DNA of 32,000 nucleotides. Source: Candidatus Brocadia sp. Lineage in GTDB: Bacteria; Planctomycetota; Brocadiia; Brocadiales; Brocadiaceae. Positions 1-30,946 of this stretch are shown piece by piece. The DNA is taken from positions 3,510,001 to 3,542,000 of the forward strand of contig CP091279.1 of the NCBI GenBank assembly GCA_021650915.1, given 5' to 3'. The number at the start of each line of letters is the position of its first letter. Position 1 is the first letter of the stretch. Both the position numbers and the translations under genes were made by a program. Under the pieces are notes generated by a model. It was not told the origin of the DNA and searched no databases. It saw only the letters and a program-made list of their open reading frames with translations.

Positions 1-778
1 CCCCGATCACCTACCATGGTCACCCCGGTGCACCCAAACCGTTCTGCCGTCTTCTTTACCTGAGACTCAAAGGTCTTTGGGTCCTGAGTATTGCCCCGAA
101 AAACCTCCGTGGACACCGGCTCCCCAAATTCATCACACAGCATACCAATCACGATCTGCTTCTTCCCCTTCTTGCCGTCACGATTATACCCGTACTCACC
201 AAAACGATTCTGCTCCCCTCCAGATAACTGCTCGTCACGTCATACAGAAACAGCTTCGGCTTCTTGCCTGCCCGTCTTGCCTCAAACAACGTTCGCTCTA
301 TCCTCGCCTGTTGCTCCGATAACCACGATAAATTATCGTAGAGATCATTCTCGTCGAACCCCCGCTTCATACCCAGCACATCACCCGCTGCATGCACATG
401 CGCCAGCCGCACCGCCGAGAGTCTTGACCCCTGATTTATCACCCGCGCCATTACCTGCCACAGCGCCAGTCTCCCTTGAAAATCCTTCCCCAACGCCTCC
501 TCTATCCCTAATTCCTTTGCCACCTGGTACACACTCCAGATCGCCCCCACGGACATCCCCTCCTGGAGTTCCACCGATCCTGACAATGCCCCCAATGCAG
601 TGAGATCCTCTTTATGGCTGAGGGCAAGCTTTATCGCTTCTATCTCCCGCGATGTGCAGTTCGACAGATTTGCAATGGTACGCTTCCTGACCTTTCCGCC
701 TTCCCGATACGATTCCCGCAAAAGAATGGAGCGATAGATTTTTTTGCCGGATTTTGATTTGTTTTCCACAATATGCAT
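1..778 (-). pseudogene. IS1634-family (IS4-like DDE) transposase, N-terminal part; frameshifted, continues beyond the left edge of the window
   Basis: ORF 149..778 reads MHIVENKSKSGKKIYRSILLRESYREGGKVRKRT...LFLYDVTSSYLEG and then terminates after junk. Reading one frame over from the G4 run (plus-strand CCCC at 215-218) gives GEQNRFGEYGYNRDGKKGKKQIVIGMLCDEFGEPVSTEVFRGNTQDPKTFESQVKKTAERFGCTGVTMVGDRG, open to position 1. This is the expected continuation for this transposase family (recognised from memory). Confidence 0.85.
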
Positions 779-1442: not shown

Positions 1443-2576
1443 TTACTTAATGACTACCGGCACCGGTGCGTTTCTGTTTGAGGCAGAACCGTCTCCCAGT
1501 TGGCCGTTCTTGTTTAATCCCCATGCCCACACCGTGCCATCAGATCTCAGGGCAAGGCTGTGTTGTCCGCCGCAGGAAACAGAAGTAACATGATCAAGGT
1601 TTTTTACGAGCGTGGGGAGCCCTCTACCCATGTTCGTTGCATCACCCAATTGACCCAAATTATTGCTGCCCCACGCCCAGACGGTTCCATCCGACTTCAG
1701 AGCAAGGGTATGATCTCCACCTCCGTCAGTTGCAATGACATTTTTCAGTCCTTCCACCGGACATGGGGTGCTCCTGCTGTCAGCCGTAGCGTCTCCCAAC
1801 TGACCATACTGGTTAAATCCCCACGTCAGAACAACGCCGTTATTCTTCAGGGCAATGCTGTGATCTCCTCCGCAATTGATACCAATAATGCCTTCAAGTC
1901 CTCTGAGTGAAACAGGGATTACCCGGTCAGCGGTGGAAGCGTCTCCCACCTGACCGTATTGGTTCGATCCCCAGGCCAAAACCGAACCGTCTGCCTTACG
2001 GGCAAGACTATGATACCCTCCAACGGCAAGGGAAGTAACGTCCTCCATCGCCCTTGTCGGCACGGGCGTTTGTCTATCGGTTGTGGTCCCGTCCCCTAAT
2101 TGCCCATATTCATTTCTTCCCCACGCCCAAACGGTTCCATCTGACTTCAAGACGATACTATGCTGCCCCTTTGTGGCAATTGCCGTAATACCACGAAGAT
2201 CAGTCACCGGTACCGGTGTATTCCTGCTTCTTGTTGTGCCATCCCCTAATTGCCCTGCCCAGTTGGCTCCCCACGCCCAGACCGTGCCGTCCCTCTTCAG
2301 CGCCAAACTGTGCCACACGCCTCCGGCAATTGCAGCGACATTATCCAAACCCTTGACCGGTGCTGGTGTTTTCCTGTCGCTATTGGTTCCGTCACCAAGC
2401 TGCCCATGAACATTTAATCCCCATGCCCACACCGTGCCGTCTGATCGCAAAGCCAGGCTATGAAAACCTCCGCAGGATATCTGTATGATAACCGCTGCGA
2501 AGGCAGCTTGGCCAGAAAGCAAGCACAGGACAAACGAGATTACCAGCCCGTATGCCATGCTATGTCTGGTATGCAT
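1443..2576 (-). CDS. Secreted RCC1-repeat (seven-bladed beta-propeller) protein
   Basis: N-terminal signal peptide (MAYGLVISFVLCLLSGQAAFA). It is followed by seven repeats of about 50 aa of the type GGxHSLALxSDGTVWAWGxNxxGQLGDGT. The repeat periodicity is also visible at the DNA level. Confidence 0.9.
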   Translation of the reverse strand: MHTRHSMAYGLVISFVLCLLSGQAAFAAVIIQISCGGFHSLALRSDGTVWAWGLNVHGQLGDGTNSDRKTPAPVKGLDNVAAIAGGVWHSLALKRDGTVWAWGANWAGQLGDGTTRSRNTPVPVTDLRGITAIATKGQHSIVLKSDGTVWAWGRNEYGQLGDGTTTDRQTPVPTRAMEDVTSLAVGGYHSLARKADGSVLAWGSNQYGQVGDASTADRVIPVSLRGLEGIIGINCGGDHSIALKNNGVVLTWGFNQYGQLGDATADSRSTPCPVEGLKNVIATDGGGDHTLALKSDGTVWAWGSNNLGQLGDATNMGRGLPTLVKNLDHVTSVSCGGQHSLALRSDGTVWAWGLNKNGQLGDGSASNRNAPVPVVIK

Positions 2577-2744: not shown

Positions 2745-5312
2745 CTAAGGGAGGATTGGTTGCGGCTGCGCTGCGGTATGGATCATTATGGCCAGTGAAT
2801 TCATACCATGTAACGGCAGGCTGATAGAAAACGCTGTTCCGGTCCCTTCTTTGCTTTCCAGATAAATAGCTCCCTCATGATCCTGTATTATCCGATACAC
2901 GATGGCAAGGCCGAGCCCTGTCCCCTTCTCTTTACTCGTAAAAAAGGGCTCAAAGATGTGTTTCATTTTTTCTCCAGGGATCCCCATGCCGTTATCAGAG
3001 ACCTCTATTACAAAATAGTGCTTGTTGGATTGATCTCCCTGGTGGGGAGAAAATGAAAAGAATATACTGCTCGGATGCTCCTTTGCCCTGGTTTTGAACT
3101 CAGAAAGCGTGTCTATAATACGGGTATTCACCTGAATGCGGCCGTTTTTTGGTAGTGCGTCCAGGCTATTTTGCATAACATTGAGGAGCACTTGCTTTAT
3201 CTTGTCCTCATCCGCAATGATCTGACATTGTTTCTCTTCCAGCGACGCAGTTATTTCAACCCCTTTATCCGCAGCGGTATGCCTGAGCAAGTTTACGGTG
3301 TCTGTGACACAACAGCAGGGGTCTATATATCGTATGACGGGCTGAGAGGGTTTTGCCAGATTGAGCATGTCTTCAATAATTCTGTTGATCCTTCCGATTT
3401 CTTTTAAGGCAATCTCACGGAAATTGGTGTGAAACTCCACATCGTCTTTTTTGTAGGGAAGGAGCTGAAAATAGGTGTTTATGGCGACGAGTGGGTTTTT
3501 TATTTCATGGGCGATATTCGAGGCAAGGGTGCCAAGGTATGCAAGCCGGTCGGCATGCTGCTTTTCTGCCTGGAGCAATTTCAGTTCTGTCAGGTCAGTC
3601 AGGATCATGAGTGCGCCAAGTTTTTCTCCTGCTGCGGTTTTCAACTGAGTGATCGTCACGCCGCACGGGACTTTTTTCCTGTCTCTCTCGATGAATGTTT
3701 CGAGGTCACGATAGTCTACGTTATTCTTAAGGCTGTGTCTCAGTAAATTGTGAGTATCCTTATTGAGGGCGCTGAGCACAGATCCATCCGAGCCGGTATT
3801 TTCCAGGCCAAGGATCATTTTTGCCTCATGATTGATCATCGTGACTTCTTCGTGAATATCCACGGCGATCACCCCGCATTTTAAACTCTGGAGGATATTG
3901 TCCCGGTAGGTCTTTGCTTCATCCAATCCTGCATAGAGACGGGCATTGTGGACAGCCATTGCCAACTGGCCGGAAAACGCAAGAAACATCTGAATATCTT
4001 CCTGGGTAAAAACCTTTTTGTTCACTTTCCTTCCCAGAAGAATTATCCCGAAGAGGTCTTTTCCCATATGGACGGGCAGGCAGCTATCGACATCCAGGGA
4101 TGCCAGCGTTTCCTCCAGCAACCGGTCATATTCATTGTGCCGAAAACGGGTCAATTGCTCTTTGGAAAGAACGGTTCGATTCTTACAGAGCCAGGAGACC
4201 ACGGCATCCTGTCCGTTAAGGAATATCGTGTCAGGGGCAGTGATGTTGAGGGATGCCTGCATATGGTACCGCTTGGTTTTTTCATTTCGTATCAATATTC
4301 CTATTTTCTCAATGCCTATAGAGTCATATAAATATTGAATGGCAAAATGGAGCATTCTGTTTAAATCGTGGATTGATGAAAACATTACCGTAGAATCGCT
4401 CAGTATTTTCGGATAGCTATACTTGGTGCGGAATAAACTATTCTCAATAAAATGATGAATCAATTCTCTGGCAGGCACAAAGGTTAAGACCATTACGATA
4501 ATAGAAACTACGCTTGTGATGGTCTCCGTATACTCTGATACCGGAAGTATCCTGCTCATGATGAATCCGACCGTAAAATAGATGATAGTGAGAGTAACGG
4601 ACAGAGCAGCGTAAACGGTACTGCGCTTGATTACTACGCTGATGTCCATGAGGTGGTATTTTGCAATAGCGTAAGCAACGGCAATCGGAATGGGAACAGC
4701 TACCAGGGGCACGAACGCCTCAACTTGCCACACACCGAACATTGGCAAGAGGAAATTGGTGATAATACCAAGAAACACAGACACCGCCACCCCGAAGTAC
4801 AAATACTGAACCTGCAATCTCTTGATGCCATAAAAATGCGTGCTTTTCCGGTAAAGGGAATATAAGGAGTACGCCATACAGGCGATAAAATAAAACCAAA
4901 ACAGGTGGAATAGTGAACTGTATGCAGCCTGGGGAAATTGCTCTACAAAGTACACAGATTTGACAATAGAGGAAGAAAGGAACAGAAGAAGGATGCTTAT
5001 GGCAGAAAAGGATATATTTAAATACCGATCAACCGGTCTTTTCGCCTGGTCAGGGAAGACAGATGAAAAAGAGAAAAAGGCGGGAGGGATGAAGGCCGCC
5101 GCACAGAAAACCAACCGAAGTCTGAAAGTAGCCAATTCGGGATTTGTTGTCCGAAGTAAAAAAAAGATAAAGAATACCCATACTGCGATAATTTGTGCAA
5201 AGAGACAAAATCTCTTGTTGATGACGTTTGCCGGATTTTTAAAGAGTACGAGGATTCCCAGTCCGGCAATCAGCAGGAAGATAAAGATAAATACTGACTG
5301 ACTTGCAAGCAT
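2745..5312 (-). CDS. Membrane sensor histidine kinase (about 9 TM helices, GAF-like, PAS, HisKA, HATPase_c)
   Basis: The hydrophobic N-terminal third contains about 9 predicted helices. PAS-like core CGVIAVDIHEEVTMINHEAKMILGL. H-box LASNIAHEIKNPL. ATPase boxes DNGMGI and GTGLGLAIV. The ATG lies 11 nt downstream of the KAS stop codon. Confidence 0.9.
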   Translation of the reverse strand: MLASQSVFIFIFLLIAGLGILVLFKNPANVINKRFCLFAQIIAVWVFFIFFLLRTTNPELATFRLRLVFCAAAFIPPAFFSFSSVFPDQAKRPVDRYLNISFSAISILLLFLSSSIVKSVYFVEQFPQAAYSSLFHLFWFYFIACMAYSLYSLYRKSTHFYGIKRLQVQYLYFGVAVSVFLGIITNFLLPMFGVWQVEAFVPLVAVPIPIAVAYAIAKYHLMDISVVIKRSTVYAALSVTLTIIYFTVGFIMSRILPVSEYTETITSVVSIIVMVLTFVPARELIHHFIENSLFRTKYSYPKILSDSTVMFSSIHDLNRMLHFAIQYLYDSIGIEKIGILIRNEKTKRYHMQASLNITAPDTIFLNGQDAVVSWLCKNRTVLSKEQLTRFRHNEYDRLLEETLASLDVDSCLPVHMGKDLFGIILLGRKVNKKVFTQEDIQMFLAFSGQLAMAVHNARLYAGLDEAKTYRDNILQSLKCGVIAVDIHEEVTMINHEAKMILGLENTGSDGSVLSALNKDTHNLLRHSLKNNVDYRDLETFIERDRKKVPCGVTITQLKTAAGEKLGALMILTDLTELKLLQAEKQHADRLAYLGTLASNIAHEIKNPLVAINTYFQLLPYKKDDVEFHTNFREIALKEIGRINRIIEDMLNLAKPSQPVIRYIDPCCCVTDTVNLLRHTAADKGVEITASLEEKQCQIIADEDKIKQVLLNVMQNSLDALPKNGRIQVNTRIIDTLSEFKTRAKEHPSSIFFSFSPHQGDQSNKHYFVIEVSDNGMGIPGEKMKHIFEPFFTSKEKGTGLGLAIVYRIIQDHEGAIYLESKEGTGTAFSISLPLHGMNSLAIMIHTAAQPQPILP

Positions 5313-5323
5313 AAGCTACATTC

Positions 5324-6568
5324 CTAAGGATATTTCCTTAGCACAAGAACGGCGTGTGTTCCGCCAACACTATGGCTGTTTATGAGCGCTGTATCCATGG
5401 AGAAACGCCTGGCATGGAGAGGGACATAATCAAGATCACAGAGAGGATCAGGCGTATCAAGATTAATGGTAGGCGTAACAAAGCCGTTCCTAAGACAGAG
5501 GCTCGTTGCAACGACCTGAAAGCCACCGCCGGCTGCGTAAGCCTGGCCAGTCATGGACTTAATTGAACTGATGGGAATTTTATACGCATGAGTTCCAAAG
5601 AATGTTTTAAATGCGTTTGTTTCCGATATATCATAGGTGGGAATGGCATTCCCATGAGCGCAGATATAGTCAATTACTTCTTTTTTCATCCTGCCAGAGA
5701 CCAGTGCATGTTCCAATGCAGAGACCAGCGCCTGTCCGCTGACGTCAACCCGAACAACGTCCAGTGCATCACAGGTAGATGCATACGATACAATCTCTGC
5801 ATAGATTGTTGCCCCTCTGTCTCGCGCGTGATTCAGTTCCTCGATCACCACAGCAGCGCCACCTTCGCTAATCACCATGCCATCACGATCCTTATCGTAT
5901 GGCCGCGAGGCCTTTTCAGGCGCTTCATTCCTTTTCGAGAGAATTCCCAAAGCACAGAAGGTGGACATAGCAAACGGGAAGATGGGAGCATCAGAGCTTC
6001 CCACAATGGCCACATCTACCTCTCCCCGTTTTACCATGGTAAAGCCCCAGTTTACCACTTCAAGCCCGGTTGAGCATCCCGATGACAGGGTTGAATTCGG
6101 TCCGGAAATTCTTAATTCCGAACATATGTAACCCGTTGTTACATGAGGTGTAAACTCAGGGGCGGTAAAACGGTTAACCGCCTTTGGGCCGAATTCTAAG
6201 AATCTCCTGTGCTGACCTTCATAGATATCGTTTTCTGCCCCGATCGTTGTTCCGAAACAGACACCGCACCGGGAGCGATTCTCATTGTTGAGGTTAATGC
6301 CGGAATCTGCAACCGCCATCTTTGATGCGGCAACACCAAAGTGGGTAAACCTTCCACTTCTTTTGACCAGTTTTGGATCAAAGTAATCGCAGGGATTAAA
6401 GTCTTTTACTTCGCCCGCAATCTGAGTGCTGAAAGGGGATGGATCAAAGGAGGCAATTTTTTTGATACCTGATTGCCCATTGATAAGCGCATTCCAGTAT
6501 GCGTCTTTCCCGTTGCCATTCGGGGCTAATATTCCCAAGCCGGTGATAACAACCCTCCTGGTCAGCAT
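5324..6568 (-). CDS. FabF-like beta-ketoacyl synthase (KAS II / type II PKS KS-alpha-like) with an atypical active site
   Basis: RRVVITGLGILAPNGNG at the N-terminus. Active-site Cys165 in SSGCSTGLE (codon 6074-6076). His305 in CAHGNAIPTYD (5654-5656). The second catalytic His position reads SIKSMTGQAYAAGG, i.e. Gln342 (codon CAG at 5543-5545). The start overlaps the upstream rSAM stop (ATGCTGA). Confidence 0.9.
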   Translation of the reverse strand: MLTRRVVITGLGILAPNGNGKDAYWNALINGQSGIKKIASFDPSPFSTQIAGEVKDFNPCDYFDPKLVKRSGRFTHFGVAASKMAVADSGINLNNENRSRCGVCFGTTIGAENDIYEGQHRRFLEFGPKAVNRFTAPEFTPHVTTGYICSELRISGPNSTLSSGCSTGLEVVNWGFTMVKRGEVDVAIVGSSDAPIFPFAMSTFCALGILSKRNEAPEKASRPYDKDRDGMVISEGGAAVVIEELNHARDRGATIYAEIVSYASTCDALDVVRVDVSGQALVSALEHALVSGRMKKEVIDYICAHGNAIPTYDISETNAFKTFFGTHAYKIPISSIKSMTGQAYAAGGGFQVVATSLCLRNGFVTPTINLDTPDPLCDLDYVPLHARRFSMDTALINSHSVGGTHAVLVLRKYP

Positions 6569-8388
6569 AAAACTTTTTCTCTCTCAGAAACATCACGCTC
6601 TGACGAAGAGAAATTTCTTTCTGCCAGGTTGCGGCTGTATGCATTTATTTTCTGGTAAACGTCTTTCAGAAAGCGGTAATCTGTCGTTAATAAAGCCAAA
6701 TCACTCTTCATCTTAAATTCCTCCAATCCTCTCTGGCCTGTAAAACCAGCGCTCCTTGCCGCAAGGCAATGTTCATCGGAGACATTTACGGTATAGCCCA
6801 TCTCTCTGACCTTTTTCTCCATGAGTCCGGACAATGCAAGCATGTCCAGGAACTTCAGTCCATGCAAGGAGATGTCCAGCTCAGGCCAGGTACTTGGGTC
6901 CTTGGTCAGTTCATACTCATAACGCAAGATCGTCTGAAAATAATCTTCCGGCAGATTAAACCCAAATCTTTCCGGCTCTGTTTGCCATGCCGTACCAGGC
7001 AGAGGTGCGGCCGGGGTTATTAAAACCGAATCCGGTTTGCAATGTTCATTTTTTAATCTCTGGAGTAAAGAGAGGTTCTCTTCCAAAATCTGCCCATGTG
7101 TTATACCACTTCCCGGAGGCAATGGGCAAGGATAAATCATACTTATTCCTACATCAAGATGTCGCCCTTCGTTGGAAGCGGCTTGTTTTATGGCCTGAAT
7201 CGTAAAATAAAAATCTTCCAGGGAATTGCCTTTTTGCATACTACGGGAAAGGATATCGTTGTTTGCAACCTCAACGCCGAGAAAAACCGCCCTTAGTCCG
7301 GAACGTATTATTTTCTCATAGGCTGCTACCAGTTCCGCGGCTCTCTCCCCTGCCTTGGTCTCTGCCCGGATGAACATTGAGTACTCAATATGTAAACCAT
7401 TCGATAATAAAGCATCAGCGATCCGTCTGCTCAGCGAAACAGGCGTTGAAGACCCTGCAAAACGAAAGAGTCCAATGCCCGTTTCCCTTATCGTATATTT
7501 TATTTCCTGAATCGTCAGGGCAACGTCTCTTGCCTGATACCTGCCGGTAATATTTGGATGGGTGCAAAAATTACACCTTCCGTAATAGCAACCGGAAGAT
7601 TCATTTATAACCGCGATGTTTACCTTCCCATCCTCCTTTTCATACAAGGGAAAAGATTTTGAGTTTAAAGGAAGTCTCTTAACCGGTGTATTTTTTATGA
7701 TACCGTTGGCATCTCTATATATCAGGTTACTGATCTTACCCGTTTCTGCAAGTTCAACAACCTTCTTTATTATCGTGGATTTTGTGCCTCCCAGGGCATA
7801 GGTTTCCCGCACGATGGTAAGAATCTGCACCAGGGTCACCTCGCCCTCGGCATCAATGCAAAAATCAAAAGGGCTTCTTTCCAGTGCATGCCTTTTAAAT
7901 TGATTAACCTGTGGCCCACCGGCAATGACCAGGGTCTCCGGGCTGTGTTCCTTTACCTTTTGCGCAAGCTTTTCAGAATAGCGAAATCTGTCGCCGAGCC
8001 AGGTCTTTATTCCGAGCACTTTAACACGATTGTTACGCATCTCGCGAGCTAGAGAGACAAGGTACCTTTCCATTTTTTCCTGGATAATGCCATCAAGGGT
8101 ATCCTGGAGCAGGTTCCACTCTTTCCTGAACGACGCCGTATCGTCTCCCGATTTTGCACCAAAGATGCGGAGAGAGAGTTCTGACAGTCGCGGGGCAAGG
8201 TCGTTTTTGGTAAAGATGGAATAGAATTCAATTTTAGCCGGGTCTTCAATAGCAACCGTAAAACCTGCATCCCTGCATGCCCGGGAGAGTATTCCAATAC
8301 CATTTTCCCGGAAACAATCACTCACGGAATAAGCCTTTCCCATAAAGGAATTCCAAAGCATAAGATCTATCCCATCCGTTGTTTGCAT
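6562..8388 (-). CDS. Radical SAM enzyme with N-terminal B12-binding-domain-like Rossmann region and a long C-terminal extension
   Basis: The cluster motif SGCYYGRCNFCTH (Cys267/272/275, nt 7564-7590) follows a flavodoxin-like segment (VKVLGIKTW...ETLVIAGGPQV). The overall layout matches class B type rSAM enzymes. AGGAG lies 7-11 nt upstream of the ATG. Confidence 0.85.
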   Translation of the reverse strand: MQTTDGIDLMLWNSFMGKAYSVSDCFRENGIGILSRACRDAGFTVAIEDPAKIEFYSIFTKNDLAPRLSELSLRIFGAKSGDDTASFRKEWNLLQDTLDGIIQEKMERYLVSLAREMRNNRVKVLGIKTWLGDRFRYSEKLAQKVKEHSPETLVIAGGPQVNQFKRHALERSPFDFCIDAEGEVTLVQILTIVRETYALGGTKSTIIKKVVELAETGKISNLIYRDANGIIKNTPVKRLPLNSKSFPLYEKEDGKVNIAVINESSGCYYGRCNFCTHPNITGRYQARDVALTIQEIKYTIRETGIGLFRFAGSSTPVSLSRRIADALLSNGLHIEYSMFIRAETKAGERAAELVAAYEKIIRSGLRAVFLGVEVANNDILSRSMQKGNSLEDFYFTIQAIKQAASNEGRHLDVGISMIYPCPLPPGSGITHGQILEENLSLLQRLKNEHCKPDSVLITPAAPLPGTAWQTEPERFGFNLPEDYFQTILRYEYELTKDPSTWPELDISLHGLKFLDMLALSGLMEKKVREMGYTVNVSDEHCLAARSAGFTGQRGLEEFKMKSDLALLTTDYRFLKDVYQKINAYSRNLAERNFSSSERDVSEREKVLC

Positions 8389-8451
8389 AACCGACTCCTA
8401 AAAAGATCTGACGACTATTATTGCCAAGAGGAAAATATCATAAACGCCGAT

Positions 8452-9831
8452 TTAGTTTTCGGTGTCCGTGATCCCGTATTTCTGCATCTTATAGTTAAAA
8501 ATCCGGCGGGTGGTTCCAAGAAGTTTCGCTGCCTTTGATTTCACGCCACCAGATTGCTGAATGGCCTGTTCAATAAGCCGCTTTTCTACGCGTGCCACTT
8601 CGTCTTCCAAAGAGATTAGTCCCGTTTTATCCGATTTCACCTGCTGCAGATTCAGCGAGGAAACACCGGTGATCTCAACTGGCAGGTGTTTGTGAGTAAG
8701 AGCACCCTCGTTGCCGTAGAGCGCAACAGTTCTCTCCATGATATTCTTCAACTCCCTTACGTTTCCCGGCCAGTGATATCTTAATAACGCATCCATAGCT
8801 TCTTTTGAAATGCATTCCATTTTTGCGTGGCACTCTTTCCGGAAAACGTTAAAGAAGTGTTCCGCTAATTGTGGAATATCCTCGTATCGCTCACGGAGAG
8901 GCGGAAGATGGATTGGGACAACATTGATACGATAATAGAGATCTTCACGGAATCGGCTCTCCCGGATCATGGATTCCAAATCTTTATTTGTTGCGGCAAT
9001 AATGCGCACATCTGTCTTGATGACGGAATGACTCCCTAAACGAGAGAATTCTTTTTCCTGCAGAATACGCAGGAGCTTTGCCTGCAATGGAAGGTTTATC
9101 TCGCTAATTTCATCAAGAAATATGGTGCCGCCTTCGGCTATTTCAAACTTGCCGAGCCGTCTCTCATAGGCGCCGGTAAAAGATCCCTTCTCATGACCAA
9201 AAAGCTCCGCCTCGAGTAAGTCGCCTGCCAGGTTTGGACAACTTACCACGAGAAATGGGTTTTCCCGTCTGGCGCTGTAAAAATGGATTGCGCGTGCGAC
9301 TAATTCCTTGCCCGTTCCACTCTCCCCTCGCAAAAGAACGGTTGAATCAACCCGGGAGACCCTGGCGATGATATCCAGTATTTCCTCCATGATCCGGCTT
9401 CGTCCCTGGATGAGTTTGTCAAGTGAAGGGTATTTGTATTCCGAACGAAGATAACGCACTTCACGGCTGAGGTTTCGGAACTGCAATGCCTTTTCAATGG
9501 TTATCTTGATCTCCTCGACCCCGAAGGGCTTGACAATATAATCTAATGCGCCCAGCTTCATTGCATCGACACTAGCCTTAACGTCATTTACTGCAGTTAA
9601 CATGACGACTCCAAACGCATGATCGAATGGTTGTAACTTTCGCAGTAATTCCAAACCATTCAGCTCATGCATTTTTATATCGAGAAGGATAAGATCCACG
9701 TGTTCTTTTTCCAGTATCTTTAAGGCCTCTTTTCCACTGAGCGTGCTGAGTACCCGATAACTATCCTTTAAGATAAGCCGGAGGGATTCAACAACACTGG
9801 ATTCATCATCTACGAGCAATATTGTTTTCAT
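8452..9831 (-). CDS. NtrC-family sigma-54-dependent response regulator (REC, AAA+ activator, Fis-type HTH)
   Basis: REC motifs: ILLVDDE, DLILLDIKM, YIVKPF. AAA+ motifs: GESGTGKELVARAIH, GSFTGA loop, TIFLDEI. HTH: AAKLLGTTRRIFNYKMQKYGI. Confidence 0.95.
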   Translation of the reverse strand: MKTILLVDDESSVVESLRLILKDSYRVLSTLSGKEALKILEKEHVDLILLDIKMHELNGLELLRKLQPFDHAFGVVMLTAVNDVKASVDAMKLGALDYIVKPFGVEEIKITIEKALQFRNLSREVRYLRSEYKYPSLDKLIQGRSRIMEEILDIIARVSRVDSTVLLRGESGTGKELVARAIHFYSARRENPFLVVSCPNLAGDLLEAELFGHEKGSFTGAYERRLGKFEIAEGGTIFLDEISEINLPLQAKLLRILQEKEFSRLGSHSVIKTDVRIIAATNKDLESMIRESRFREDLYYRINVVPIHLPPLRERYEDIPQLAEHFFNVFRKECHAKMECISKEAMDALLRYHWPGNVRELKNIMERTVALYGNEGALTHKHLPVEITGVSSLNLQQVKSDKTGLISLEDEVARVEKRLIEQAIQQSGGVKSKAAKLLGTTRRIFNYKMQKYGITDTEN

Positions 9832-9924
9832 AGAAGATTAAAATAAACCAGAAAGCCAGACGTTTTTTTCCTTTATTCACTATACCCTTAACTTTAAACG
9901 ACACCCTGATCCACAGGATTAATG

Positions 9925-9948
9925 GTTTATTTCTGTACAGAAATAAAC
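9925..9948. promoter_or_regulatory. Perfect 24-bp palindrome GTTTATTTCTGT|ACAGAAATAAAC in the spacer upstream of the sigma-54 activator gene
   Basis: Read directly from the sequence. It lies 94-117 nt upstream of the ATG at 9831 and about 135 nt downstream of the preceding stop. No U-tract follows on either strand, so it is not a classical terminator. Confidence 0.4.
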
Positions 9949-10044
9949 GCGATTCGATTGTTCTTATAGAGGGACCGCCATTGTTTGTAACAAGTTTTGA
10001 TGATACGAACCGCCCTTAGAAACTTCTGTTGCGAAGGACTTCCT

Positions 10045-10053
10045 GGGGGGGGG
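10045..10053. repeat. G9 (C9 on the coding strand) homopolymer tract
   Basis: tcctGGGGGGGGGaaag read directly. It lies 29 nt downstream of the REC-GAF-PAS stop (10082). It is the longest G/C run I noticed while reading. Confidence 0.9.
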
Positions 10054-10081
10054 AAAGTTTTCCTCATATGAGATTTGAGAC

Positions 10082-11536
10082 TCAACCTGGCTGAGCAACA
10101 AGCATTTTGCCCAACTCCGTACCAATACCGGATGGGGATGTTCGACTTTCCAACTGCTTGAGTTTCTTCTCAAACTCTGCAACGGTACTTAAACTCGATT
10201 GTAATTTCCTGATTTCACTTATGTCTGAAAATATCATAACCGCCCCTATTTCGCCGCTGGTATCGAAAAAAGAAGTACTTACAGAATATGTTAAATGAGT
10301 GGTCGGATGCACCACTTCGCGCATCTCGTATGTTTTTTTGTCTTTTAGCGTTCTTAAAATAATATCAGTAAACAGAGAACCAATGTGCTTTACATCTTTT
10401 CCAAGGATATCGTGAGAACTCATATCAAGCATCTTTGCGGCATTTTTGTTAAAGGCATTAATCCTGCCATTGCTGTTTATAGCGATTACACCGCACGGGA
10501 TATTTTCTAACAGATTTTCGTTCAGAATTTTCCGATGATTTGCCTCCCGGTACAGAAAGGCATTCTCGACCGCCATACCTATATACCCTGCCAGCATGGA
10601 GAGCAATTCGATATCTTCATCAAAGAAGACCTTTCCGGTAATTTTGTTCCCTAAAGTGATTACACTGCTGAGGCTTCCGTAAGCCAAGACGGGGATGCAT
10701 AAGTGGGCTTGTAGCAGATTGATTTCCCGCTGTATATCTATGGCTTCACGGATACTTAAGGTATTACATGCAACCTTCTTTTCTATAACGTCTTTTGTTA
10801 ATATTTGATGGTTTTTCGTTAACCAGAGCATGATGCCATGATTATTATTAAAACAGATTTTTTTGGCAACGGACTCGTCCAGGCCTAAATACCGATACGG
10901 TCGGCTAACCCCTTCCTTTTTGTAGACCAGGGTAAAAACTACCTTTCCCACACCAAATATTTCTGACATTGCTTCAACGGTCAGGTCTGCAAGTTTTCCG
11001 AGATCCTGGACTCGCGCCAATACCTTTGAAAATTTTTGGAAGACCTCCTTATATTTAAGATTAATCTCTCCTGCGTTTGGCTGCCTGTTCATTGCCGGTT
11101 CTGACATACCAAGACCTTGCTTTGCCGGTTGTAAGTTTTTTATGTGAGACTGCATAAAACCCAGTTCTTTTTTCAACGATTGCTTTTCCAATGCCCGCTT
11201 TGATGCATGTTCTATAGCATCGTTCGTTAATGGTTTCTCAAGCAGCTCATACGTACCTATCCTTAAGGCATCCCCGGACATTGCTGGCTGAGACTCCGGG
11301 ATTATCAGCACGATGGTTGGATCTATATTGACTTGCCTGAATTTCTCCAGGAGCCTGGTTGCCCCTTCGTTATGTAATAGGGAATCGATAAAAGTTATAT
11401 CAACGTCCTTGTTAAACAAGATTTCAAGCGCATCATCAGGAGTCTTTGCGTAGTGAATTACATAGTCTCCATTTAAAGATTTTTTAAAAAGGTTGGTAAC
11501 AGACGTATCGTCCGAGACTATCAAAATAGAGTACAT
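10082..11536 (-). CDS. Receiver-GAF-PAS signalling protein with no recognisable output domain
   Basis: REC motifs: ILIVSDD, ITFIDSLL, LLEKPL. These are followed by a coiled linker, a GAF-like region (LCIPVLAYGSLSSVITLGNK) and a PAS core (IPCGVIAINSNGRINAFNKNAAKMLDM) resembling that of the kinase at 2745-5312. The protein ends after an S-helix-like EIRKLQ segment with no H-box. AGGAG lies upstream of the ATG. Confidence 0.75.
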   Translation of the reverse strand: MYSILIVSDDTSVTNLFKKSLNGDYVIHYAKTPDDALEILFNKDVDITFIDSLLHNEGATRLLEKFRQVNIDPTIVLIIPESQPAMSGDALRIGTYELLEKPLTNDAIEHASKRALEKQSLKKELGFMQSHIKNLQPAKQGLGMSEPAMNRQPNAGEINLKYKEVFQKFSKVLARVQDLGKLADLTVEAMSEIFGVGKVVFTLVYKKEGVSRPYRYLGLDESVAKKICFNNNHGIMLWLTKNHQILTKDVIEKKVACNTLSIREAIDIQREINLLQAHLCIPVLAYGSLSSVITLGNKITGKVFFDEDIELLSMLAGYIGMAVENAFLYREANHRKILNENLLENIPCGVIAINSNGRINAFNKNAAKMLDMSSHDILGKDVKHIGSLFTDIILRTLKDKKTYEMREVVHPTTHLTYSVSTSFFDTSGEIGAVMIFSDISEIRKLQSSLSTVAEFEKKLKQLESRTSPSGIGTELGKMLVAQPG

Positions 11537-11649
11537 AACTATCTCCTTTCTAAAAAATCCCTCAGCTACGAAAAATGATGATTACCTAGACATATTTGTA
11601 AGTTTTAGAATTAATAGAAATATAATCGGCTGAACAATTATGACCACAG

Positions 11650-11665
11650 CGCAATTTAAATACCA
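11650..11665 (-). promoter_or_regulatory. Candidate sigma-54 (-24/-12) promoter for the REC-GAF-PAS / activator / rSAM / KAS / kinase string
   Basis: The minus strand reads TGGTATTTAAATTGCG. GG and GC are separated by exactly 10 nt, as in the consensus TGGCAC-N5-TTGC. It lies about 115 nt upstream of the ATG at 11536. Confidence 0.35.
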
Positions 11666-12101
11666 AATATTCACTAAATATGGCACTAAGCATGTTAAGT
11701 ATCGTATTTATTAATACTTACTATAGCTGTGCTATCGAACAAAAAACCTAAATCAAATATACCGAGGGAAATATGTTCATTTTTTCGGCATATTCTGTTG
11801 CAATATGTCTCTTTTTTGGGTATAAGGTTACAAAAATAGCCACCGCAGTTCATGATCTTGAAATAGCGAAAAAGGGAGGAAAATGATCATTTTTGTAAAT
11901 TATATAACACTCAAATTTTCTGGTACATGAACAAGTATGTACATGAAGCAATGATTTCCATGGGAGGAGACGGCAGGATGAAACAATATTGTAAATGTAT
12001 TTTTTTGAGAGGAAAGACATTTTTTTAATTTTGCAAATATTGTTATTACCTGAGAAATCAAAATAAGTTACAGATGTCTATTATTTTTTTCCCCTTTGAT
12101 T

Positions 12102-12117
12102 TGGCACAAAAAATGTT
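12102..12117 (+). promoter_or_regulatory. Weak sigma-54-like element upstream of the HD-GYP regulator gene
   Basis: TGGCAC-AAAAA-ATGTT ends about 30 nt before the ATG at 12146. The -24 half is perfect, but the -12 element has GT instead of the conserved GC. A near-identical TGGCAC-TAAGC-ATGTT sits at 11681-11696. Confidence 0.2.
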
Positions 12118-12145
12118 CTCTAAATATGCCTTTGAGGACTAGGGT

Positions 12146-13180
12146 ATGGAACAAATCACGAAATTGGCAAGCATTTTGGTAATCGACGACGACCTTGGCG
12201 TTAGGGAATCATTAAAGATCATACTAAGGGACAAATATCAGGTTTCCACTACATCAAATATTGATGAAGCCCTTGCCAGTATGACTATCGCAAGGCCAGA
12301 AATAATCTTCCTTGATATAAAGATGCCCAAAGCAAACGGTCTGGATTTTCTCAAGCAGTTGCGCTCCACGAACACGAATATTCCCGTCATCATGATTACG
12401 GCACATCCTTCCATTGAAAACACCATCATCTCCTTACGAAATGGCGCATTTGATTTTATTGTGAAGCCTTTCCACCCGGCAGAAATCCTTACGGTAGCTG
12501 AAAAAGCATTGCGCCATAGCAACGAACAGTGGGAAAAAGACATGCTGGTGGATAATCTGAGGCGGGCGGCACAACAAAATTTTCTCTCAACTACCGAAGC
12601 GCTTTTGCAAGCCATAGATGCGAAGGACGCTTATACTGCCGGACACTCGAAACGGGTGTCGGAACTTGCCGCTTTTGTCGCAAAAGAATTGGGCAAAAAC
12701 GAGTCAGAAATTGAAGTCCTGCGATATGGCGCCTATCTCCATGATATCGGGAAAATCGGGGTAGGCGATCTCGTGTTGACAAAACCAAGTTACCTTACTC
12801 AGGAAGAATTTGGTTTAATGAAACGTCATTCCGAGATTGGTTATAAAATTATTGCGCCAATAAAATTTATGGAAAAATGTCTGCCTATCGTGCGTCATCA
12901 TCACGAATGGTACAATGGCAAAGGTTATCCGGATGGTTTGCAGGGATCTGACATTCCCTTTGAAGCCAGCATTCTTTCAATCGTAGATGCGTATGATGCC
13001 ATCACCACGGACAGGCATTATCATAAAAAATATTCTCATCAAAAAGCCTGTGAAATTATTACCCAGGGAATAGATACCCAATTTACGCCAACCCTGACGG
13101 AAAAGGTACTCGCCATTATTAATCGATATCATGAAGAATGCATACCGGGTGAACGGACAGAATACTCTCTAACACGCTGA
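12146..13180 (+). CDS. Response regulator with HD-GYP domain (c-di-GMP phosphodiesterase, RpfG type)
   Basis: REC motifs: ILVIDDD, IIFLDIKMP, FIVKPF. HD-GYP motifs: HSKRVSELA, YLHDIGKIGV, HHEWYNGKGYPDGL. Confidence 0.9.
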   Translation: MEQITKLASILVIDDDLGVRESLKIILRDKYQVSTTSNIDEALASMTIARPEIIFLDIKMPKANGLDFLKQLRSTNTNIPVIMITAHPSIENTIISLRNGAFDFIVKPFHPAEILTVAEKALRHSNEQWEKDMLVDNLRRAAQQNFLSTTEALLQAIDAKDAYTAGHSKRVSELAAFVAKELGKNESEIEVLRYGAYLHDIGKIGVGDLVLTKPSYLTQEEFGLMKRHSEIGYKIIAPIKFMEKCLPIVRHHHEWYNGKGYPDGLQGSDIPFEASILSIVDAYDAITTDRHYHKKYSHQKACEIITQGIDTQFTPTLTEKVLAIINRYHEECIPGERTEYSLTR

Positions 13181-28684: not shown

Positions 28685-28759
28685 GTAACACTTTAGTTCT
28701 TTGAAAAATTAACAAGCGATTTTGCAAGCAAACCCAGAAGGCGTTTTCACCATAAGGGC
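28685..28759. repeat. Left terminal inverted repeat of the IS66-like element
   Basis: GTAACACTTTAGTTCTTTGAAAAATTAACAAGCGATTTTGCAAGCAAACCCAGAAGGCGTTTTCACCATAAGGGC. Confidence 0.85.
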
Positions 28760-30078
28760 ATTTTTTGCGCTAGCCAGAAGATTTTCCACTGGATTGATTC
28801 TTTGTAATTCAGCAGAACGAAGCAGAGACATAAGGATGGCCTGTGTCTTAGCGCCACCTCAGAGCGGTTCTGCTGTGAGACCTTTCTGGTCAATACTGGC
28901 TTTCGCATCTGTTGCTCAGCATGGTTGTTATAGGGACTGACATCCTCATGTTCCAGGAACGTAAAGAGTTCCTGTTTATGGCGGTTCAGGCGTTTGGTCA
29001 ATCTTTGTGCATCTTTATCCTGGCAGGGTGTTGCCAAAAACTGTTCAAGCCTGCAATACAGTCTATTTTTGAGCCTGAGAAAGCATGCCGGGTTTATCTG
29101 GTGCTTTTTCTCGGATAGCCGGATGGCATCCCTGAGTAATCGGGAGAGTTTTCTCCTGAAACTTTTCCATGAGACAGAATGGTTGTAGGTGTCTACTTTC
29201 ACGAGTTCCGTAAAGAGATGATAGAAACACCGCTGCTTTGCCAGTGCGCTTGTCTTGTTATAAGCGCCCCAGAAGTCGCAGATCAGGATGCCCTTGAAGA
29301 GTCTGCCTAAGAACCTTTTTATGACAGGCGACCCCCGATTCCGTGTTATAAGGTAGTAGCAGAGGGTTTTGGTGGTAAAACACCATAACCAATGGGTTTT
29401 TCCATTCAACCGCCACCCGGTTTCATCTGCGTGCAAGACGGCGCTGGTAGAGACCTTTTGTCCAATATCGTTATACTGTGGTTCCAGGAGTGTTGCAAGA
29501 GCCTTCCAGGCCTGGGTTAAACCACCGGCGCTTACGTGAAGATTGAAAAATACGGAAACCATCTTTACAAGGTTGTTTACACTGATACCGACTACGTAAT
29601 GAAGCCAGGCGGTAAAGACAACGAGGCGCAATCCGAGTCGGGCGTTTGGCAAGGCATCGGTGAGCGCGGGCTGAACGATCTTTTTGCAACAAGCACACCA
29701 GTAGCCATGAACCGTATGTTCCGTCACGACAGGGTCGACCCGGGGGATATCCTCGATGTATCGCTTATACGTTCTCACCGGCTTTTGTAATGACTGCTGG
29801 CAGTCAGGGCACCTCTCCAGGGTATGTGTCTTATAGGCAGTTATGGTTTCCGGTCGTCTTCGGGAAACCCCCTTATGTCCTGGTTTTCTGCCACAAGGTC
29901 GTTTTCTCTTTTTACGGGTAGGCTTGAGATAAGGTGGCGTCATGCCCGAAGGGGTAGTTGGGCTTGGTTTATCGCAGAGTCGGTCATACTTCTCTGCCTT
30001 CCCGGCCAGTATCAGGATGACTTGAATCGCATCCTCTCTGTTCATCTCCAGGATGGCTCGGGCTTCATCCCTGGTCAT
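28747..30078 (-). CDS. IS66-family DDE transposase (TnpC-like)
   Basis: Zinc-finger pairs CPDCQQSL...YWCACCKK, and the DDE region LHADETGWRLNGKTHWLWCFTT typical of IS66 TnpC. The start is taken at MTRDEARAIL (Met32 of the track ORF), which overlaps the upstream stop by 14 nt. Confidence 0.85.
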   Translation of the reverse strand: MTRDEARAILEMNREDAIQVILILAGKAEKYDRLCDKPSPTTPSGMTPPYLKPTRKKRKRPCGRKPGHKGVSRRRPETITAYKTHTLERCPDCQQSLQKPVRTYKRYIEDIPRVDPVVTEHTVHGYWCACCKKIVQPALTDALPNARLGLRLVVFTAWLHYVVGISVNNLVKMVSVFFNLHVSAGGLTQAWKALATLLEPQYNDIGQKVSTSAVLHADETGWRLNGKTHWLWCFTTKTLCYYLITRNRGSPVIKRFLGRLFKGILICDFWGAYNKTSALAKQRCFYHLFTELVKVDTYNHSVSWKSFRRKLSRLLRDAIRLSEKKHQINPACFLRLKNRLYCRLEQFLATPCQDKDAQRLTKRLNRHKQELFTFLEHEDVSPYNNHAEQQMRKPVLTRKVSQQNRSEVALRHRPSLCLCFVLLNYKESIQWKIFWLAQKMPLW

Positions 30079-30946
30079 GAGCAAGAAGCCTCCGGAAATT
30101 TTTCTCAAGAGGATACAGGTAGAGTTCCTTCGTCTGGCCATGATACCGATAGGTATTGCCCCGTTTTGCACTGCCTTTGGTTTTTCCTACACGGAGCCAA
30201 TTAGCTGCCTGATAGCAAGTGCCTTGAAATCGCGCGGTATCAACAAAGGTCTCCGCCAAATACACGGGATGTCCGTAGACAGCTTCCCAGTCATCTGACA
30301 AACGCTTGAGGGCAAGGGATAATACCTTGGATGCAAGGTGTTTGACCGTAACCCAGGGGGGAATGAGGAATCGCACGTTACTGGCAATTAAATGCAAGTG
30401 GGTGCGTTTGGTGGTCTCATCCCATCCGATGAAACGGTCACGGTCTTTGACCTTCCATGCTGCGCTTGCCCATCCAAGACAGGCAACGACCTGATTGCCG
30501 ATATGTACGATGTGCCTGACGTGTTCTCCAACAAGCCGGGGACATCCGAGGTAGTGGTAGTGATAGAGGAGATAACCCCAGAGGTAACTCTCTTGAGGGT
30601 CTTTTACCACCTGGATCGTCGGGATTTCATACCCGGTGATAGTGCCTCCCAGTGTGCTTTTGACAAAAAGGGGTATCTGATCAAATATCTTAGGTTTCAG
30701 ATTGTTTTTTGGTCGTATGCGGCCTGGAAGCGCTACCAGGCCCTGCTCTTCCAATCGCAGAAGGAGGTCTCGTGCCGCGTATTCTTTCAGCTTGCCATTG
30801 GGCTGCACCCAGTTCCAACTTTTGCAAAGTTCACGGGAAATATAACTCCGCCCTTTGAGAAAATAACTATCAATGAGCGCCTTGATAAAGGCTATATCGT
30901 CTGTATGCAGTTTCCGTGAACGGTATTGGAATAGTATTGGCTTCAT
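30065..30946 (-). CDS. DUF4338-like protein (the domain found in Druantia DruA), carried inside the IS
   Basis: YLWGYLLYHYHYLGCPRLVGEHVRHIV...VVACLGWASAAWKVKDRDRFIGW...NVRFLIPPWVTVKHLASKVLSLALKRLSDDWEAVYGHPVYLAETFVDTARFQGTCYQAANW matches my recollection of DUF4338 conserved blocks. Not verified by HMM. Confidence 0.7.
   Translation of the reverse strand: MKPILFQYRSRKLHTDDIAFIKALIDSYFLKGRSYISRELCKSWNWVQPNGKLKEYAARDLLLRLEEQGLVALPGRIRPKNNLKPKIFDQIPLFVKSTLGGTITGYEIPTIQVVKDPQESYLWGYLLYHYHYLGCPRLVGEHVRHIVHIGNQVVACLGWASAAWKVKDRDRFIGWDETTKRTHLHLIASNVRFLIPPWVTVKHLASKVLSLALKRLSDDWEAVYGHPVYLAETFVDTARFQGTCYQAANWLRVGKTKGSAKRGNTYRYHGQTKELYLYPLEKNFRRLLAHDQG

Follow-up and report, generated by a model that had tools for sequence, protein, structure and literature searches.

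In the rpfF-rpfC-rpfG system for diffusible signal factor (DSF) in Xanthomonas, a synthase that draws on acyl-acyl carrier protein (acyl-ACP) is encoded beside a multi-transmembrane (multi-TM) sensor kinase and a REC-HD-GYP response regulator. The cqsA-cqsS/LuxO system of Vibrio and the lqsA-lqsR-lqsS system of Legionella also contain a synthase gene that adjoins the gene for a membrane-embedded kinase without a periplasmic domain; LuxO is an NtrC-type sigma-54 activator, and the lqs synthase, regulator, and kinase genes form one cluster. In des-desK-desR, a lipid enzyme is encoded beside a multi-TM kinase. Here we analyze a locus in a 32,000-nucleotide (nt) stretch of the genome of Candidatus Brocadia sp. 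(assembly GCA_021650915.1, contig CP091279.1, positions 3,510,001 to 3,542,000; referred to as the window), in which a FabF-like ketoacyl synthase (KAS) and a radical S-adenosylmethionine (SAM) enzyme are encoded between an NtrC-type regulator and a HisKA_7TM sensor kinase. We interpret the locus as one member of a module, widespread and so far undescribed, that consists of a ketosynthase, with or without a radical SAM enzyme, and a 7TM kinase and whose function we infer from gene context.

The likeness to the rpf system lies in a synthase-type enzyme encoded beside a multi-TM kinase and in a REC-HD-GYP protein with conserved HD, HHE, and GYP motifs at the same locus. The two systems differ in their enzymes (a FabF-like KAS and a radical SAM enzyme here, a crotonase there) and in the HisKA_7TM-GAF-PAS sensor and sigma-54 activator found here, and the signal of the present system is putative. 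As at the cqs and lqs loci, a synthase-type gene adjoins that of a membrane-embedded kinase, and an NtrC-type sigma-54 activator is present as at cqs. However, CqsA and LqsA are pyridoxal phosphate-dependent acyl-coenzyme A transferases with no homology to the KAS or the radical SAM enzyme, and the regulator scores 341 bits against the LuxO model (cut-off, 800). A functional resemblance to phcBSR can also be drawn, again with unrelated synthase enzymes. Neither enzyme is homologous to RpfF, CqsA/LqsA, PhcB, or LuxI; only a partner enzyme found in other phyla, described below, is FeeM/LuxI-like.

Two further systems share the kinase architecture. In DesK-DesR-des of Bacillus subtilis, a lipid-modifying enzyme is likewise encoded beside a multi-TM kinase that has no extracellular domain, but that system is of the HisKA_3/NarL type with the desaturase on a separate transcript, whereas at the present locus the regulator and kinase genes flank those of the enzymes and the output is of the sigma-54 type. 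PrsK-PrsR of PEP-CTERM/exosortase systems combines a multi-TM-GAF kinase with an NtrC-type regulator; the window's kinase aligns over residues 26 to 469 to PrsK and its regulator to PrsR, but both fall short of the family models (TIGR02916, 106.9 bits versus a cut-off of 300; TIGR02915, 371.5 versus 502.6), and the window contains no exosortase or PEP-CTERM genes. We know of no function for HisKA_7TM kinases. A full-text search of the open-access literature found no paper on HisKA_7TM kinases with ketosynthases, in agreement with the original prediction, an earlier reading of this DNA by a model, which knew of no such arrangement.

A ketosynthase and a radical SAM enzyme are encoded inside a two-component operon

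The open reading frame (ORF) listing of the window reproduces five minus-strand genes that run head to tail, at exactly the coordinates first reported for them. The first encodes a 484-amino-acid (aa) REC-(GAF)-PAS protein (10082 to 11536; Pfam Response_reg and PAS, with a weak GAF match). It is followed by genes for the NtrC-type sigma-54-dependent response regulator (8452 to 9831), a 608-aa class-B-like radical SAM enzyme with a B12-binding domain (6562 to 8388), the FabF-like ketosynthase, assigned below to a subfamily that we call KAS-Q (5324 to 6568), and a HisKA_7TM-(GAF)-PAS-HisKA-HATPase sensor kinase (2745 to 5312). Both enzymes are embedded within the two-component operon as predicted, with the regulator upstream and the kinase downstream. 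Direct reading confirmed that the stop codon of the radical SAM gene and the start codon of the KAS gene overlap in ATGCTGA (6562 to 6568, minus strand), consistent with translational coupling, and that 11 nt separate the KAS stop codon from the kinase start codon. The activator and radical SAM genes are 63 nt apart. Apart from a 250-nt noncoding gap after the first gene, genes in the operon overlap or lie 11 to 63 nt apart, and no terminator-like site was found within the intergenic gaps. Domain searches of the whole window detected no ACP, reductase, dehydratase, or thioesterase, as had been claimed.

A survey of gene neighborhoods, a check that the original prediction had called for, revealed that the arrangement is kept in relatives. 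The radical SAM gene is followed by the KAS gene in every Brocadiales locus fetched, and the 7TM kinase follows the KAS in those with enough flanking DNA, with the exception of Anammoxibacter, in which the kinase gene is not adjacent. Both a search of 5.8 billion proteins and a scan of GTDB genomes retrieved orthologs from Brocadia, Jettenia, Loosdrechtia, Wunengus, Kuenenia hertensis, and Anammoxibacter. A divergent REC-HD-GYP gene and the REC-GAF-PAS gene are usually present where enough upstream DNA is available; Jettenia and Loosdrechtia have versions of the locus without the NtrC-type gene. The gene order is far beyond chance, because it is kept in the Brocadiales loci fetched and the KAS-kinase pair recurs far outside them.

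In about 10 Brocadia species, three extra genes are found between the activator and radical SAM genes (for example, locus L012, positions 6177 to 9189). The first encodes a ketosynthase (KS) resembling a chain length factor (CLF), without the Cys, His, and His of the catalytic triad; the second, a canonical Cys-His-His KS that passes TIGR03150; and the third, an 88-aa ACP (PP-binding, 37 to 39 bits). Together, the three genes make up a minimal type II polyketide synthase-like set without reductive enzymes. The species represented by the window lacks all three.

KAS-Q is paired with a 7TM kinase well beyond anammox bacteria

We scanned metagenomes with motifs specific to the KAS and obtained at least 495 stretches, from which 80 loci were kept. 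Because these were retrieved by KAS motifs only, the sample is not biased toward kinases. Together with three loci from earlier context look-ups, 75 of the loci contained downstream DNA, and in all 75 a HisKA_7TM kinase is encoded on the same strand after KAS-Q (immediately in 73 and after one intervening gene in 2). The proposed link of the enzymes to a membrane-embedded kinase is therefore strongly conserved and more general than had been noted. The three context look-ups, made for relatives of the KAS, each showed a HisKA_7TM-GAF-PAS kinase next, and two also contained a full-length homolog of the window's radical SAM enzyme (27% identity; E values of 1e-47 to 1e-56). Homologs of this type precede KAS-Q at five loci outside the anammox bacteria. 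Thus, the conserved core consists of KAS-Q and the 7TM kinase, the radical SAM enzyme is a frequent accessory, and neither is specific to anammox bacteria.

A typical locus outside the anammox bacteria contains the KAS, the 7TM kinase, sometimes a second 7TM kinase, and then a REC-GAF-PAS kinase or a REC protein, and most of these loci encode nothing enzymatic beyond the KAS. Upstream genes (PfkB kinases, a UvrD-type helicase, and unknowns) were considered as functional partners and set aside as unrelated. Named carriers are an Aureabacteria metagenome-assembled genome (MAG) and a Methylomirabilota protein (labeled Methylomirabolota); others come from soil and lake metagenomes. In the Aureabacteria locus, genes for a hybrid kinase and a FadL/Toluene_X protein are divergent from an operon of radical SAM enzyme, KAS-Q, kinase, REC-kinase, and REC-HTH_8 protein. 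This divergent pair of outer-membrane channel and hybrid kinase recurs in three loci of the Aureabacteria type, including L077 (2145 to 4605) and L158 (145 to 2608).

KAS-Q retains its nucleophile but not the canonical FabF signature

The KAS was originally called FabF-like. The description holds for its fold and overall similarity: it is a thiolase-fold KS with N and C domains (PF00109, 148.5 bits; PF02801, 83.8 bits) and a nucleophilic Cys, and its nearest relatives are true FabFs, with 342 bits to B. subtilis FabF. It does not extend to family membership, since the protein scores 423.6 bits against the FabF equivalog TIGR03150, below the cut-off of 493.75, and belongs to a distinct subfamily. 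Databases call it FabF because it exceeds the cut-off of the subfamily model NF005589 (403.7 versus 387 bits).

Alignment to B. subtilis FabF (4ls5) revealed a Cys165-His305-Gln342 triad in which Gln replaces the second catalytic His. In addition, HGNAI replaces HGTST and NSHSVGG replaces NSFGFGG, changing the GFGG gating loop to SVGG, so that the enzyme lacks the Cys-His-His triad, the HGTST motif, and the GFGG loop. Relatives at 47 to 56% identity share the same signature. Among about 120 members of the KAS-Q family, Cys165, His305, and Lys337 are invariant (Cys in 119 of 119); position 342 is Gln in 104 sequences and His in 16. Because the nucleophile, the first His, and the Lys are invariant, KAS-Q is probably catalytically active, with a predicted alteration of its extender and gating pocket. 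By analogy with the Asn of KAS III, the Gln could supply an oxyanion hydrogen bond.

The strict one-to-one adjacency of KAS-Q and the kinase, with KAS first, could also mean that KAS-Q is an accessory co-sensor. It would bind or turn over acyl-ACP or malonyl-ACP and report the state of fatty acid synthesis to the kinase, and the radical SAM enzyme would be a lineage-specific addition. BceAB and LiaF are accessory co-sensors of this kind for their kinases, and the lack of any enzyme other than the KAS at most loci outside the anammox bacteria fits such a role. We nevertheless consider it improbable, given that the catalytic residues (Cys, His, and Lys) never vary in the family and that the association with the radical SAM enzyme, the ACP, and the KS pair in several lineages suggests a real product.

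The radical SAM enzyme appears to form an uncharacterized class-B-like family

The B12-domain-like N terminus reported for the radical SAM enzyme was borne out by a match to B12-binding (PF02310, 34.7 bits versus a cut-off of 32.1). Radical_SAM (PF04055) scored only 24.2 bits, below its cut-off of 29.5, and the cluster motif, which had been overlooked, is CX4CX2C (C267, C272, and C275) rather than the canonical CX3CX2C. The assignment is supported despite the low score because the three Cys are invariant across 36 homologs, down to 26% identity, and because the modeled fold is of class B with high confidence (AlphaFold2; pLDDT, 92.6; pTM, 0.90). The spacing varies by clade: the Brocadiales and Negativicutes enzymes share CX4CX2C, those of Desulfatibacillum have CX5CX2C, and the canonical CX3CX2C is confined to distant members.

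A Foldseek search with the model gave TsrM as the best match (E value, 3e-17; TM-score, 0.57), followed by OxsB and AprD4, and a profile search of PDB sequences matched B12-radical SAM structures weakly, pointing to the same class. Like the class B enzymes TsrM, OxsB, TokK, and CysS, the protein has an N-terminal Rossmann B12-type domain followed by the radical SAM barrel, and use of cobalamin is predicted. Identity to class B structures is 13 to 15%, with TM-scores of approximately 0.5 to 0.57, and, unlike those enzymes, it has the CX4CX2C motif and, at its C terminus, a conserved domain of about 190 aa without a match. It reaches no curated NCBIfam model; the best are PhpK (66 bits; cut-off, 600) and TIGR04072 (49.7 bits; cut-off, 360). 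These results support a class-B-like radical SAM enzyme of an uncharacterized family. Identical proteins are encoded in Brocadia sp. UTAMX2 and in assembly GCA_000987375.1.

Relatives of the radical SAM enzyme lie beside signaling genes in other phyla

A scan of GTDB genomes for the radical SAM family yielded 68 loci. In those outside Brocadiales, the enzyme never occurs with a KAS and is almost always found with signaling genes. A kinase is encoded within two genes of it in 30 of the 41 loci from other phyla, and the exceptions are mostly short contigs; as a background, kinases account for 3 of the 307 genes more than three positions away (1%). The usual partner in these phyla is a FeeM-like N-acyltransferase instead of a KAS. 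In Desulfatibacillum, a FeeM-like gene precedes the radical SAM gene and a hybrid kinase is convergent; in Glassbacteria and Gemmatimonadales, the loci encode an sCache-HAMP kinase, a REC-HD-GYP homolog directly upstream of the radical SAM enzyme, and a methyltransferase.

About 28 loci from Negativicutes form a three-gene cassette (for example, L046, positions 7065 to 11719), with genes in the order multi-TM PAS histidine kinase, FeeM-like GNAT fused to a cyclic nucleotide monophosphate (cNMP)-binding domain, and radical SAM enzyme. The cassettes occur in Sporomusa, Propionispora, Pelosinus, Anaerospora, Dendrosporobacter, and Lucifera, and we know of no description of them; an open-access full-text search found no paper linking N-acyl amino acid synthases, radical SAM enzymes, and kinases, though a prior description is possible. 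No DNA-binding regulator is adjacent to these cassettes, and the enzymes are therefore not simply regulatory targets. Since the cassettes occur in cultivable organisms (Sporomusa ovata and Propionispora), the radical SAM family is experimentally accessible. In Sporomusa, the FeeM-like partner matches the exosortase-associated acyltransferase model TIGR03694 weakly (22.8 bits versus a cut-off of 112).

The family occurs in several copies in some genomes. Five paralogous cassettes are present in one Kiritimatiellae MAG, and two to three per genome in Sporomusa, Propionispora, and one Brocadia MAG. The copies within the Brocadia MAG and within the Kiritimatiellae MAG are not identical, and multiple copies per MAG may reflect true paralogy or strain mixtures. 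Separately, the radical SAM enzyme is fused to a class I SAM-dependent (UbiE-like) methyltransferase in one protein (L034, positions 9983 to 12574) and linked to one in two others (P0082 and P0086), and a methyltransferase gene lies downstream in two further loci; this hints that methyl transfer belongs to the pathway.

The enzymes might instead modify a protein, with the radical SAM enzyme and its acyl-transferring partner acting on a signaling protein, for instance the kinase. Protein modification is known for other class B enzymes, Mmp10 among them, the cNMP-binding domain of the FeeM-like partner recalls cyclic AMP-regulated protein acyltransferases, and the window's enzyme matches models of peptide-modifying B12-radical SAM enzymes weakly. 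We find this highly improbable: a KAS forms C-C bonds on acyl chains bound to a carrier rather than on proteins, the sister clusters encode an ACP and a KS/CLF-like pair, and no precursor-peptide-like ORF was seen.

The enzymes may produce a lipid-derived signal for the adjacent kinase

We propose that the enzymes make an acyl-derived signal sensed by the adjacent kinase, so that the locus would constitute a self-contained lipid-derived signaling module; we estimate the probability of this at roughly 45%. KAS-Q would take an acyl thioester from the fatty acid pool and condense it; in the sister Brocadia species, the chain would come from the dedicated CLF-like KS, KS, and ACP. The radical SAM enzyme could then modify the unactivated chain by methylation or another radical C-C or C-H reaction. 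The hydrophobic product would partition into the membrane, where the intramembrane 7TM sensor might detect it, and the kinase would phosphorylate the NtrC-type regulator, giving positive feedback on the operon's own sigma-54 promoter. The REC-GAF-PAS and REC-HD-GYP proteins may be phosphorylated as well, the latter with cyclic di-GMP turnover as its output.

The original prediction had suggested a feedback circuit for membrane composition, and membrane-lipid homeostasis is the main rival to a dedicated signal. The 7TM kinase would sense a property of the bilayer and tune the FabF-like enzyme and the radical SAM enzyme through the sigma-54 regulator, remodeling acyl chains. Several observations fit: the kinase is almost entirely membrane-embedded without a large extracytoplasmic domain, the KAS is closest to genuine FabFs, and the enzymes and regulator share one operon. 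The des system is a precedent, and Escherichia coli FabF catalyzes the thermally regulated elongation step. However, KAS-Q, in which the second catalytic His, HGTST, and the GFGG loop have all been replaced, is no ordinary elongating FabF, and the Negativicutes and Glassbacteria cassettes have no transcription factor. A small-molecule product is favored over tuning of bulk lipids because the radical SAM enzyme occurs with a FeeM/LuxI-like N-acyltransferase in other phyla, because the cassettes there lack a DNA-binding regulator, because some genomes carry several paralogous cassettes, and because a KS/CLF-like/ACP set, free of reductases and better suited to a specialized product, is present in sister species. 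We retain homeostasis as an explanation that is unlikely but deserves the most attention after the signaling module.

Other points weigh against the signaling module. Its function is predicted from gene context. The sensors linked to the radical SAM enzyme differ by phylum (7TM-GAF-PAS, multi-TM-PAS, and sCache-HAMP), contrary to what one conserved ligand would predict, and enzymes of the FeeM-like and Acetyltransf_5 type also include OlsB-type synthases of membrane aminolipids. A search with the 7TM region of the kinase, which could have revealed kinases without a KAS, returned only fragments of close relatives. Finally, a second promoter might be located in the 250 nt between the first two genes.

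In its broader form, the proposal is that KAS-Q, optionally with the radical SAM enzyme and, in some species, with a KS/CLF-like/ACP set of its own, synthesizes a new class of autoinducers derived from lipids or polyketides, with HisKA_7TM kinases as the dedicated receptors. Such systems would be common among bacteria of soil, freshwater, and wastewater, anammox bacteria among them, with a sister FeeM-like/radical SAM/multi-TM kinase system in Negativicutes and Desulfobacterota. We advance this tentatively, with the odds somewhat against it. If it is correct, HisKA_7TM kinases would gain a ligand class, and the known autoinducer synthases would be joined by a ketosynthase of the FabF type and a radical SAM enzyme that modifies fatty acyl chains. 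Anammox bacteria would gain a genetically defined system for cell-to-cell signaling, relevant to granulation and reactor start-up.

The locus differs from the candidate ladderane clusters

The original prediction had connected the radical SAM/KAS pair with ladderane biosynthesis. Candidate clusters in Kuenenia stuttgartiensis are kuste2802-2805, kuste3335-3352, kuste3603-3608, and kustd1386-1392 (Rattray et al., PMC2649909; Javidpour et al., PMC4790861), of which Cluster I, kuste3603-3608, has been characterized by Granatino et al. (bioRxiv 10.64898/2026.05.19.726425). The pair could conceivably serve ladderane biosynthesis or its regulation, for example as the "unknown cluster" postulated by Rattray et al. 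to make or ligate the cyclobutane part. Combinations of KAS and B12-radical SAM enzymes mark the published clusters (PMC2649909; bioRxiv 10.64898/2026.05.19.726425), the host here is likewise an anammox bacterium, and Brocadia, Jettenia, Loosdrechtia, Kuenenia hertensis, and Anammoxibacter all keep the locus. Both groups of loci combine FabF paralogs with a B12-domain radical SAM enzyme, and the sister species of the window also encode a dead CLF-like KS.

Because the gene order of the expanded Brocadia loci (dead KS, KS, radical SAM enzyme, KS) resembled 2805-2804-2803-2802, we compared them with kuste2802-2805, using the Kuste2803 protein and kuste2802 gene sequences from the supplement of Javidpour et al. 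Identity with that cluster was rejected. Kuste2803 is a different radical SAM enzyme, with a canonical CPFACEFC motif and 24% identity to the window's enzyme over 162 aa only (pairwise E value, 6e-5), and kuste2802 encodes a small holo-ACP synthase (AcpS). In place of the triad, the dead KS of the expanded loci carries Ala/Gly, Ser, and Phe, whereas Kuste2805 is reported to carry Phe, Asn, and Glu (PMC2649909).

The ladderane connection did not hold up. The enzyme is not orthologous to Kuste2803 or Kuste3608, it stays far below the cut-off of TIGR04072 (rSAM_ladder_B12), and, unlike the candidate clusters, the locus is a two-component operon of different proteins without a FabZ or phytoene desaturase homolog. 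Nor is it restricted to ladderane-producing anammox bacteria or, apparently, universal among them. KAS-Q, the 7TM kinase, and the radical SAM enzyme occur together in Aureabacteria, KAS-Q and the kinase occur in Methylomirabilota-named, soil, and lake contigs, and the radical SAM family is widespread in Negativicutes, Desulfatibacillum, and others. No ortholog was retrieved from the ladderane producers K. stuttgartiensis or Scalindua in a search of 5.8 billion proteins or in the GTDB scan, which suggests that the locus is absent from them. We give a ladderane role very little weight; if the module makes and senses a signal of its own, the pair drops off the list of candidates, which narrows a long-standing search.

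A sigma-54-type element is conserved upstream of the operon

A -24/-12 element (TGGTAT-TTAAA-TTGCG; 11650 to 11665, minus strand) lies approximately 115 to 130 nt upstream of the first gene. Within the window alone such matches are not significant (5 versus 4.0 expected), and the support for the site comes from conservation across species only: 16 of 21 orthologous upstream regions contain a TGGYAY-N5-TTGCN equivalent, compared with 9 of 103 other intergenic regions. It is also kept in Jettenia and Loosdrechtia, whose loci lack the NtrC-type gene. The operon is probably sigma-54 driven, and autoregulation is probable. A second candidate promoter directly upstream of the radical SAM gene, TGGCAA...GTCGT in the 63-nt gap, was rejected because it does not fit GG-N10-GC.

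Inverted-repeat and k-mer scans of the divergent promoter region (11537 to 12145) yielded possible regulator binding sites. Two short motifs recur across species, TCATAATTGTTCAG immediately after the -12 element and a palindrome, ACAATATTGT, farther upstream, and a direct repeat of TTCATGTAC is found near 11920 to 11947.

Kinase and response regulators

The kinase, first described as a GAF-PAS protein with approximately 9 TM segments, has about 8 to 9 hydrophobic segments in residues 1 to 285, followed by a weak PAS match, HisKA, and HATPase_c (Pfam/NCBIfam). The GAF domain is called in homologs, but Pfam does not call it here. In the gene calls of four related loci, the kinase starts at an internal codon (677 aa) despite an intact 855-aa ORF, and a 100-aa ORF is called on the opposite strand over the 7TM region. 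Public annotations may thus hide the membrane sensor domain.

The activator has REC, Sigma54_activat (AAA+) with GSFTGA and Walker A motifs, and HTH_8, and with the predicted -24/-12 element it has the composition of an NtrC-family sigma-54 system with a Fis-type helix-turn-helix. Orthologs of the first gene in five Kuenenia-like loci encode REC-GAF-PAS-HisKA-HATPase hybrid kinases of 700 to 722 aa, so the 484-aa Brocadia protein is a kinase-less version. The 250-nt noncoding gap stands where the kinase core would be; it contains a run of nine C (10040 to 10055, minus strand), a possible slippage tract or weak point of the assembly. The divergent response regulator gene (12146 to 13180, plus strand) encodes a REC-HD protein with HD at residue 199, HHE at 252, and GYP at 260, and is therefore assigned as an RpfG-type HD-GYP regulator.

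Other features of the window

An Rfam search of the window found no RNA of any kind, riboswitches (including cobalamin riboswitches) among them. The gene immediately after that of the kinase (1443 to 2576, minus strand) encodes a 377-aa protein with seven RCC1 repeats; it is kept only in the closest relatives (six loci) and is therefore probably not part of the module. The remainder of the window contains housekeeping genes (ilvC, ilvN, rnf/nqr subunits, purH, trpF, selA, cinA, and uvrC) and insertion sequence (IS) fragments. An IS1634-family transposase fragment (149 to 778, minus strand) lies near one end of the window and an IS66-family transposase (28747 to 30171, minus strand) near the other.

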